Source of the DNA: Chloroflexota bacterium
GTDB taxonomy: Bacteria; Chloroflexota; UBA11872
DNA: 64,000 nt
Direction of reading: 5' to 3'
Assembly: GCA_026706485.1 (NCBI GenBank)
Contig: JAPOYR010000010.1
Location: 145,798-209,797, forward strand
Shown here: positions 31,100 to 33,583 of the stretch, piece after piece
Layout of the letters: each line of letters begins with the position of its first letter
How positions within the stretch are numbered: position 1 is the stretch's first letter
Program-made: the position numbers and the translations under genes
The notes under the pieces: generated by a model
What the model was told of the DNA's origin: nothing
What the model saw: only the letters and a program-made list of their open reading frames with translations
Database searches by the model: none

Positions 31100-33583
31100 T
31101 TGGTTGACACTGGCCAGGCAAGCCTGAGAGGCGGCACACCCCGCCACGATAGCCCCCGAATCCAGGTTGCCCGCGCGCCGACGGCCCAAGCCGCTCTCGG
31201 GGACCTCTACGTCGTGGTGCAAGGCGGCACGGACCGCCAGGGACGCGCCTTCGTCAGCGCTGCAACCACCACCTACTACGCAGGTGAGTCCGATGACATT
31301 GCCGCGGCGTTGGTCAGCAGCATGCGACAAGCGTCCTACAGCGTCACCGTGTCGGCCGATCCGGGTGAGGCGGCGGCGATCGTCGGCGCCACGGGAGCCG
31401 TCATCGCCGACGGCACCGTCTACATCGCCCAAGTCATGCCAACGCAAGTCTTTTTCCTGCGTAACGGCACGATCAATGCCCTCCCGAACGAGCCCGATTT
31501 CGACTCCGCCTACCAATCCAGTCTTGACGTCGAGCAGGAGATCGACCTGTTTCGCGCGCAGCTTCAGGACGGTGACTGCTTGGTGCTGGCGTCAACGGAC
31601 CTTCGTCATGAACTCACGGAACGTGAAATCCGCGGCATGCTGCGCCGGCGCTCGGCCCAGGAAGCGGCGTACGACATGTGCGCCCTCATCGCCCAGCGCG
31701 GCGGGCAACAGTGCGAAGTCCTGGTCGTGAAATTCGCGAACGTCTCGGCCCGCGGAGTCCCGACGGATGGCAGGCATCCGCCCGCAGCCACGGACACGAC
31801 ATCCGTCGGTTCCCTGGACGACGGAGACCCGGAGCTCGCCTATCAGGACGAGTCGGTGAGCCAGTCGCACCCCGCCAGCCTGCAGTCGCCGCGGCAAGAT
31901 GACCCGCGTCTCGGCAGGCGCGTTCAAACCGGTGGAGCCTACGCCGACGAGACCTGGTCCGACCTTTCTCGAAATCGGGCAGCGCCGGCGCAACGGAAGT
32001 CATTGGCACAGCGGATCATCTCGCTGCCCGTTACGCTGATCACACTCGTTGTTGTGCTGCCGATGGTGGTGGTGCGTGCGCTCGTGGATCTCGTTACCGG
32101 CAGAGGTCGCAACCGGCGCGTTCGGCCGCAAGCCACCGCACCCGAGCCGCCGTCCGACCGGCTCGACGACGACTGGGACAGCCTGCGTGACCTTCGGGCC
32201 GCAGGTCCCGGCGACCAGCGGTCCCCGGTCGATGCCGCGCCGCCCGCGCGCCCGCTCGAATACGTAGGCGCCGATTTGCAGGGACACCGCGATCCGCTGC
32301 TGGTCCGCCGCCGGCGCTCGTTCCCAGGGCCGGGCACCCTCCTCTTCGGCTTGTCGCTGGCGTTGCTCGTGGTCATGGCGGTGGTGCTGATCCTGCGAAA
32401 CTCGCCCGCGCCGGCTGAGAGCGACCTCGTCGAAACGCCCGCGCTCGACGGTCCGTCGCCGACTGCGACAACCGGCCCGGGCGATTTCGAACCCGTTGAG
32501 TCAAGCTCACGGGCCACGGAGCTGCTGACGCAGGCCGAGGATCTGTTCCGCGAAGCGCAAGACCGCGGACCCGAGGAAGGCCGCGCCGCCACGCTGTTGA
32601 TGCTGCGCGATGCCGAAGACTTGGCCAATCAAGCGCTGTCGGCGGACACTGCCCGGCTGCTCGCGCAGGACATCAACCGTCTCCTCGACGACATCACGCG
32701 CGAGGAAGAACGCATCAATCGCGTCTACAAAATCGTCCCAAGCTCAACCATCGACGAGTTCGATAGCGCAGGCATCGGCAGCGCGGTGGAAGCCCTCGAT
32801 GTTCGACTGGACTCGAAGTATGTGATCGATGCTATTTCAGATCAGCTGTTGTCCTATGAGACCGCGCGCCAGGGCGTGTCGTTGCTGAGGAAGGGCGACG
32901 TCGTCGGCTCGGTGACCGTTCAGGATCTGATCGCCGTCATCGACCGATCGTTGAGCCCGATCGTCATCGACAATCGATACAACATCTTCAGCATCGATGA
33001 GAGCGATACGGCGCGCCTGCTGCGCATCACCGGCACTGAGGAGTGGCGGACCCCGGTGGCGTTCGACAACTTCAACAACAATCTCTACGTGCTTGACCCG
33101 GGGGCGAACACGATCTTCAAATACCAATGGACCGCCGGCGGCTACGAGCTGGGGCCAACGAGCTATTTGGACGCTCGGGATGAGATTGACCTCTCAACGG
33201 CCATTGATTTCGCGATCGACGGCGACATCTACGTCCTGTTCGAGGACGGATCGATCCTGAGATTCCGCGGCGGCTCCCAGATCGGCTTCACCATCGCTGG
33301 GCTCGAGGGCGACGCGCTGCGCGCGTCCCGGATATTCACCGACGCCGAGTCGGAGAGCCTCTTCCTGGCCGACGTTTCCAACAAGCGCATCGTCGAAATC
33401 GACAAGCGCGAGGGAACCGCGGGAGCCTTCGTCCGACAATTCAAATACGCCGGCTCGGATGATTTTTTCGGCGATATTCGCGGGCTCTGGGTCAGTGAAA
33501 TCGACGGGCGCATGATCGTGCTTGGCAAGGACAGGCTGCGTCAGTTCGTCCTGCCGCGGCTCGCCGACGGCACAGGCGCCTAG
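31100..33583 (+). CDS. large membrane protein: N-terminal PP2C-like (possibly degenerate) phosphatase-like domain, two TM helices, C-terminal beta-propeller-like repeat domain
   Basis: 827 aa. Residues ~30-230 resemble PPM/PP2C (LYVVVQGGTDRQG in place of the DGHGG motif, and CLVLASTDL...CEVLVVKF). Two hydrophobic helices follow (IISLPVTLITLVVVLPMVVV and LLFGLSLALLVVMAVVLIL), and the C-terminus repeats LYVLD / IYVLFEDG / LFLADVSN / LWVSEIDG blades. Confidence 0.55.
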   Translation: MVDTGQASLRGGTPRHDSPRIQVARAPTAQAALGDLYVVVQGGTDRQGRAFVSAATTTYYAGESDDIAAALVSSMRQASYSVTVSADPGEAAAIVGATGAVIADGTVYIAQVMPTQVFFLRNGTINALPNEPDFDSAYQSSLDVEQEIDLFRAQLQDGDCLVLASTDLRHELTEREIRGMLRRRSAQEAAYDMCALIAQRGGQQCEVLVVKFANVSARGVPTDGRHPPAATDTTSVGSLDDGDPELAYQDESVSQSHPASLQSPRQDDPRLGRRVQTGGAYADETWSDLSRNRAAPAQRKSLAQRIISLPVTLITLVVVLPMVVVRALVDLVTGRGRNRRVRPQATAPEPPSDRLDDDWDSLRDLRAAGPGDQRSPVDAAPPARPLEYVGADLQGHRDPLLVRRRRSFPGPGTLLFGLSLALLVVMAVVLILRNSPAPAESDLVETPALDGPSPTATTGPGDFEPVESSSRATELLTQAEDLFREAQDRGPEEGRAATLLMLRDAEDLANQALSADTARLLAQDINRLLDDITREEERINRVYKIVPSSTIDEFDSAGIGSAVEALDVRLDSKYVIDAISDQLLSYETARQGVSLLRKGDVVGSVTVQDLIAVIDRSLSPIVIDNRYNIFSIDESDTARLLRITGTEEWRTPVAFDNFNNNLYVLDPGANTIFKYQWTAGGYELGPTSYLDARDEIDLSTAIDFAIDGDIYVLFEDGSILRFRGGSQIGFTIAGLEGDALRASRIFTDAESESLFLADVSNKRIVEIDKREGTAGAFVRQFKYAGSDDFFGDIRGLWVSEIDGRMIVLGKDRLRQFVLPRLADGTGA

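Follow-up and report, generated by a model that had tools for sequence, protein, structure and literature searches.

The gene described here raises a question of function: what is the role of a membrane protein that carries a phosphatase-like domain with an apparently dismantled active site at one end and a beta-propeller at the other, and on which sides of the membrane do these two parts lie? Chloroflexota are abundant in soils, sediments and wastewater, yet little is known of their envelope biology and signalling; some bin names point to marine sponges as a habitat as well. We analysed the gene within a stretch of 64 kb of Chloroflexota DNA (the whole stretch is referred to as the window). 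Its extent is backed by 50 full-length homologues with 45-99% identity; the N-terminus is conserved among homologues and AAGGA lies upstream of the start. The start codon has been corrected and the architecture of the product defined (Table 1). The sequence around the gene shows no sites that resemble promoters or terminators.

Table 1. The gene and the parts of its product, in window positions.
Feature	Positions	Strand	Basis or remarks
Whole gene	31100..33583	+	827 aa + stop codon; TTG start; ORF list
Residues 1-215, cytoplasmic (predicted) PP2C-fold pseudophosphatase domain	31100..31744	+	
Residues 216-305, disordered juxtamembrane linker, poorly conserved	31745..32014	+	pLDDT <35; alignment gaps, low conservation
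Residues 306-325, first hydrophobic segment, conserved P310, P321, then R326	32015..32074	+	Kyte-Doolittle 2.65
Residues 326-411, basic loop, predicted cytoplasmic	32075..32332	+	Alignment invariants, charge counts
Residues 412-432, conserved transmembrane helix, N-in/C-out	32333..32395	+	Kyte-Doolittle 3.09
Residues 433-466, Pro/Thr/Glu-rich extracytoplasmic stalk	32396..32497	+	pLDDT <50; 0-1 K/R, 5-7 D/E
Residues 467-540, three-helix bundle	32498..32719	+	AF2 C-terminal model
Residues 541-820, six-bladed NHL-type beta-propeller	32720..33559	+	

An earlier note on this DNA had staked its interpretation on a PP2C fold in the N-terminal half and a propeller in the C-terminal half, and both folds emerge from structure prediction and comparison. 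The N-terminal domain is the alpha-beta-beta-alpha sandwich of PP2C, and sequence homology to PP2C is detected; Pfam gives no match of any kind to the window protein at E ≤ 10, PP2C models included, the NCBIfam model NF033484 gives 18.4 bits against a cut-off of 230, and a phmmer search of the PDB with the single target sequence returned only noise. Alignment to PstP reveals that D38 corresponds to Q41, D118 to P114 and D191 to T166, that D229 falls in a gap, that the MGGHA of PstP beside the D38/Q41 match is deleted, and that the flap is about 20 aa shorter. The same holds for relatives: the D118 equivalent is Pro across the whole family and the D191 equivalent is Ser/Thr, and among 168 two-domain members the motifs DGxGG, [ST]DG and GxDN each occur in none and GDSR in 3, with the PstP control positive for all. 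With all the metal-binding aspartates lost, along with most of the flap, no Mn/Mg-dependent PPM activity is predicted, and the conclusion that the domain is unable to act as such a phosphatase is strongly supported. In PstP, the mutations D38G and D229G each cost more than 90% of activity (PMC3052367). The earlier suggestion of a possibly dead phosphatase, made from a replaced DGHGG motif, is therefore extended to all four metal-ligand positions throughout the family; the accompanying claim that the C-terminal PP2C motifs are retained fails in functional terms. With this fold and this loss of ligands the domain fits the PP2C-fold pseudophosphatases, which are a functional class, not one family. 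A residual single-metal site may exist in the family, because most of its wider membership is acidic at the D38 position (Glu at residue 41 in 69 of 126) and at position 45 (Asp or Glu in 69 of 126); in the target's own clade residue 41 is Gln instead of Glu. The domain also has a conserved motif of its own, Q111-x-G-P114 with G158-D159, whose D159 is kept in 102 of 119 members and aligns to a non-ligand GD of PP2C.

The blade repeats at the other end, which the earlier note had already read as a propeller, form a six-bladed structure whose top-scoring counterparts in structure comparison are NHL domains that bind without enzymatic activity, together with the PknD sensor. Blade 5 contains a canonical NHL repeat (LFLADVSNKRIVEIDK...FVRQF), and an N-terminal strand at 541-555 that precedes blade 1 may complete the three-stranded blade 6. 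The Pfam NHL model (PF01436) has no match in the window protein and is found in relatives (P0104 at 25 bits; also P0201, P0206, P0216 and P0219); no SGL or lactonase Pfam match reaches threshold. The helices of the bundle, confidently modelled at pLDDT 81-97, span 2-24, 30-48 and 53-74 in the numbering of the AF2 C-terminal model.

The arrangement of these parts across the membrane had to be revised. An inside domain followed by two transmembrane helices and an outside domain, as first described, is topologically impossible, since two spanning helices put both flanking domains on one side; comparison across the family points to one conserved span. A single hydrophobic segment is present in 89 of 118 distant members, at the same place as 412-432, just before the C-terminal domain, an arrangement that would put the two domains on opposite sides of the membrane. 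Segment 306-325, with K/R on both flanks, is missing from these 89; the profile tm.hmm matches close relatives only, and the segment and the loop motif that follows it are limited to the close clade. Although hydrophobic enough on the Kyte-Doolittle scale to span the membrane, it is clade-specific and probably re-entrant or peripheral, and would dip into or rest on the membrane with its two ends on the cytoplasmic side. The loop after it carries the clade-conserved DDDWxSLRxLRxxGP (356-370), an invariant RRRR (403-406) and PGPG just before the transmembrane helix; alignment invariants in this region are W359, R363, L365, R366, R403, R405, R406 and P409-G412. The conserved helix has 5 K/R before it and an acidic, K/R-poor stretch after it, and in the 89 single-segment members the flanks average 4.3 versus 2.5 K+R, with more on the N-terminal side in 67 of 89. 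We infer an N-in/C-out orientation because the positive-inside rule fits these flank charges; this would place the N-terminal domain in the cytoplasm and the propeller outside the cell. No family member has an N-terminal signal-like segment, and the full-length predicted model has low confidence in the membrane region. On sequence grounds, the family-wide single helix and charge bias suggest a PstP-like layout (N-in domain, one transmembrane helix, extracytoplasmic C-terminal domain), to which the clade adds an extra segment.

The family comprises at least 183 clusters (50% identity) at E ≤ 1e-30, with thousands more scoring more weakly; when the word-indexed search for homologues was repeated from the C-terminal profile, most of the matches were fragments and the set gained little in depth. 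All members whose source names an organism are Chloroflexota, and there is one copy per stretch, among housekeeping genes, in the window and in 16 loci of 2.5-18 kb. Pfam gives nothing above threshold for the window protein, 24 close members and 10 distant members; NCBIfam has no family-level match above threshold for the target, PADLOC has none for it, and every named relative is annotated as a hypothetical protein. The impression that this is not a characterised family was thus right: it is large, widespread in Chloroflexota and nameless in any curated library. Literature searches on a Chloroflexota protein that combines PP2C, transmembrane and propeller parts, and on membrane pseudophosphatases of bacteria, yielded no relevant description. 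Because both domains are kept in 118 of 148 representatives, with the propeller roughly twice as conserved per residue as the N-terminal domain, selection appears to act on both halves.

Across loci, the neighbours are infC, aspS, a tRNA, MoxR, tsaD, guaA and obg. The proposed check on conservation with infC, tRNA-Gly and MoxR gave a divided answer: the block is collinear down to a homologue of 41% identity and is broken up in more distant members. This pattern, a collinearity of the whole block that disappears with distance, leads us to reject the idea that infC, the tRNA or MoxR forms a functional operon with the target. Immediately downstream, tsaD recurs in two distant lineages (L012 and L017). 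Rfam found only the tRNA in the window. Neither the window nor any of eight related neighbourhoods contains a linked gene for a kinase, an FHA protein or a phosphatase, and no signalling partner gene is conserved beside the family. When the window and loci were scanned for motifs of Hanks kinases and true PP2C phosphatases, only two DGxGG strings turned up, chance matches in a protein of the purine-nucleoside-phosphorylase family and in a CitMHS transporter. Since no kinase, FHA or other partner gene is linked there, a role in Ser/Thr signalling is no more than an analogy, and the earlier designation as a transmembrane signalling protein goes further than these neighbourhoods allow.

The reading that we favour, at a probability of about 0.6, is that of a bitopic, receptor-like membrane protein with a pseudophosphatase inside and an NHL propeller outside, similar in plan to PstP and PknD and non-catalytic in its cytoplasmic module. 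Such a protein probably senses or anchors rather than dephosphorylates, and by analogy the cytoplasmic module would function non-catalytically as do TAB1 and RssB. It is unlikely that the protein works instead as an enzyme outside the cytoplasm or as a structural part of the envelope, with the propeller, as the functional part, acting as a lactonase- or phytase-like hydrolase or as a binder of cell wall or S-layer and the PP2C-like domain as only an anchor or assembly handle that regulates nothing: the closest propeller structures are non-enzymatic binding domains and the PknD sensor, SGL and lactonase models stay below threshold, and the presence of the N-terminal domain, with its family-specific motif, in 118 of 148 representatives argues against a vestige. 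It is improbable that the protein is an atypical phosphatase or hydrolase kept active by metal ligands at new positions, for example E/Q41, D45, D159 and D167. The acidic residues at 41 and 45 in the wider family and the retention of D159 would suit it, and there are known cases of pseudoenzymes whose residues have migrated (PMC10211241); against it stand the Gln at 41 in the clade, the family-wide Pro at D118, Ser/Thr at D191 and the deletion at D229, the shortening of a flap that normally bears substrate and third-metal contacts, the pairing of D159 with a non-ligand residue, and the loss of activity that either single mutation causes in PstP.

Still less probable is a helical hairpin in which both segments span, the PP2C-like domain and the propeller are both cytoplasmic, and only the loop 326-411 is outside. 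The hydrophobicity of both segments is of transmembrane grade (2.65 and 3.09) and the loop contains a conserved motif, as this arrangement would lead one to expect; however, both ends of the loop next to the membrane are rich in K/R, with the invariant RRRR among these residues, an acidic stretch follows the second segment, most relatives have one segment only, and the first segment and the loop motif occur only in the close clade. It is scarcely credible that the protein supplies the propeller of a MoxR-vWA-beta-propeller ternary conflict system and acts jointly with the downstream MoxR ATPase. Some 200 nt downstream there is indeed a MoxR gene with a weak bpMoxR Pfam match (39 bits), and the two genes are neighbours in L010 and L016 as well, but this MoxR scores far better as a generic AAA_3 protein (218 bits), a convergent tRNA gene stands between the two genes, no MoxR is found beside the distant members in L012, L014, L015 and L017, and PADLOC gives nothing for the target; the absence of a vWA gene and the non-conserved adjacency effectively refute it.

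If the protein is receptor-like as we favour, the propeller would bind a ligand outside the cytoplasm, for example a polymer of the envelope, a glycan or a protein, and the pseudophosphatase would then serve a partner as a docking or allosteric module, without catalysis, in the manner of TAB1 or RssB; a phospho-Ser/Thr protein or a Hanks-type kinase is a candidate partner. A more specific model, which we put forward tentatively and would not expect to hold in full, is a receptor pseudophosphatase in which the NHL sensor, by way of one transmembrane helix and a PP2C allosteric switch, controls the non-catalytic capture or release of a phosphoprotein or kinase. Were this true, it would be the phosphatase counterpart of receptor pseudokinases and a core envelope-to-cytoplasm signalling route of Chloroflexota, undescribed in any bacterium. 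The sequences and models suggest that an ancient bacterial lineage may have kept the PP2C fold for a non-catalytic purpose, paired with a PknD-like extracellular sensor.

The domain layout of PstP (Rv0018c), a membrane-bound Ser/Thr phosphatase of Mycobacterium tuberculosis with PP2C, transmembrane helix and extracellular domain (PMC3052367), matches that of the target, but PstP is an active Mn2+ enzyme with D38, D118, D191 and D229, all four of which the target lacks, and its 191-aa ectodomain is not aligned by the target family profile. PstP sits in the cluster fhaA-fhaB-pstP-rodA-pbpA-pknA-pknB; none of these genes is near the target gene, which in the window and the loci has no linkage to Hanks kinases, FHA or cell-wall genes. 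The propeller side is best compared with PknD (Mbk), the receptor Ser/Thr kinase of M. tuberculosis in which a transmembrane helix leads to an extracellular NHL propeller (PMC1262709). This layout again matches that of the target, except for the cytoplasmic module, which in PknD is an active Hanks kinase and in the target a PP2C-fold pseudoenzyme. PknD (1RWI), unlike the target, is not known to have a helical bundle between its transmembrane helix and propeller. As for non-catalytic PP2C folds, human TAK1-binding protein 1 (TAB1) is a pseudophosphatase (PMC8622459), soluble, eukaryotic, without membrane or propeller part, and with conservative substitutions (Asn/Glu) where the target has Gln, Pro, Thr and a deletion. 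The C-terminal domain of RssB (E. coli / P. aeruginosa) is a bacterial PP2C-fold pseudoenzyme adaptor (PMC5468089); RssB is a soluble response-regulator fusion that brings RpoS to ClpXP, and it is further from the target in structure than enzymes of the Stp/PstP/tPphA type. Precedents thus exist for both folds and for the receptor layout, and nothing is overturned; the family adds a membrane-bound bacterial case to the short list of PP2C pseudoenzymes (TAB1, RssB, PHLPP).

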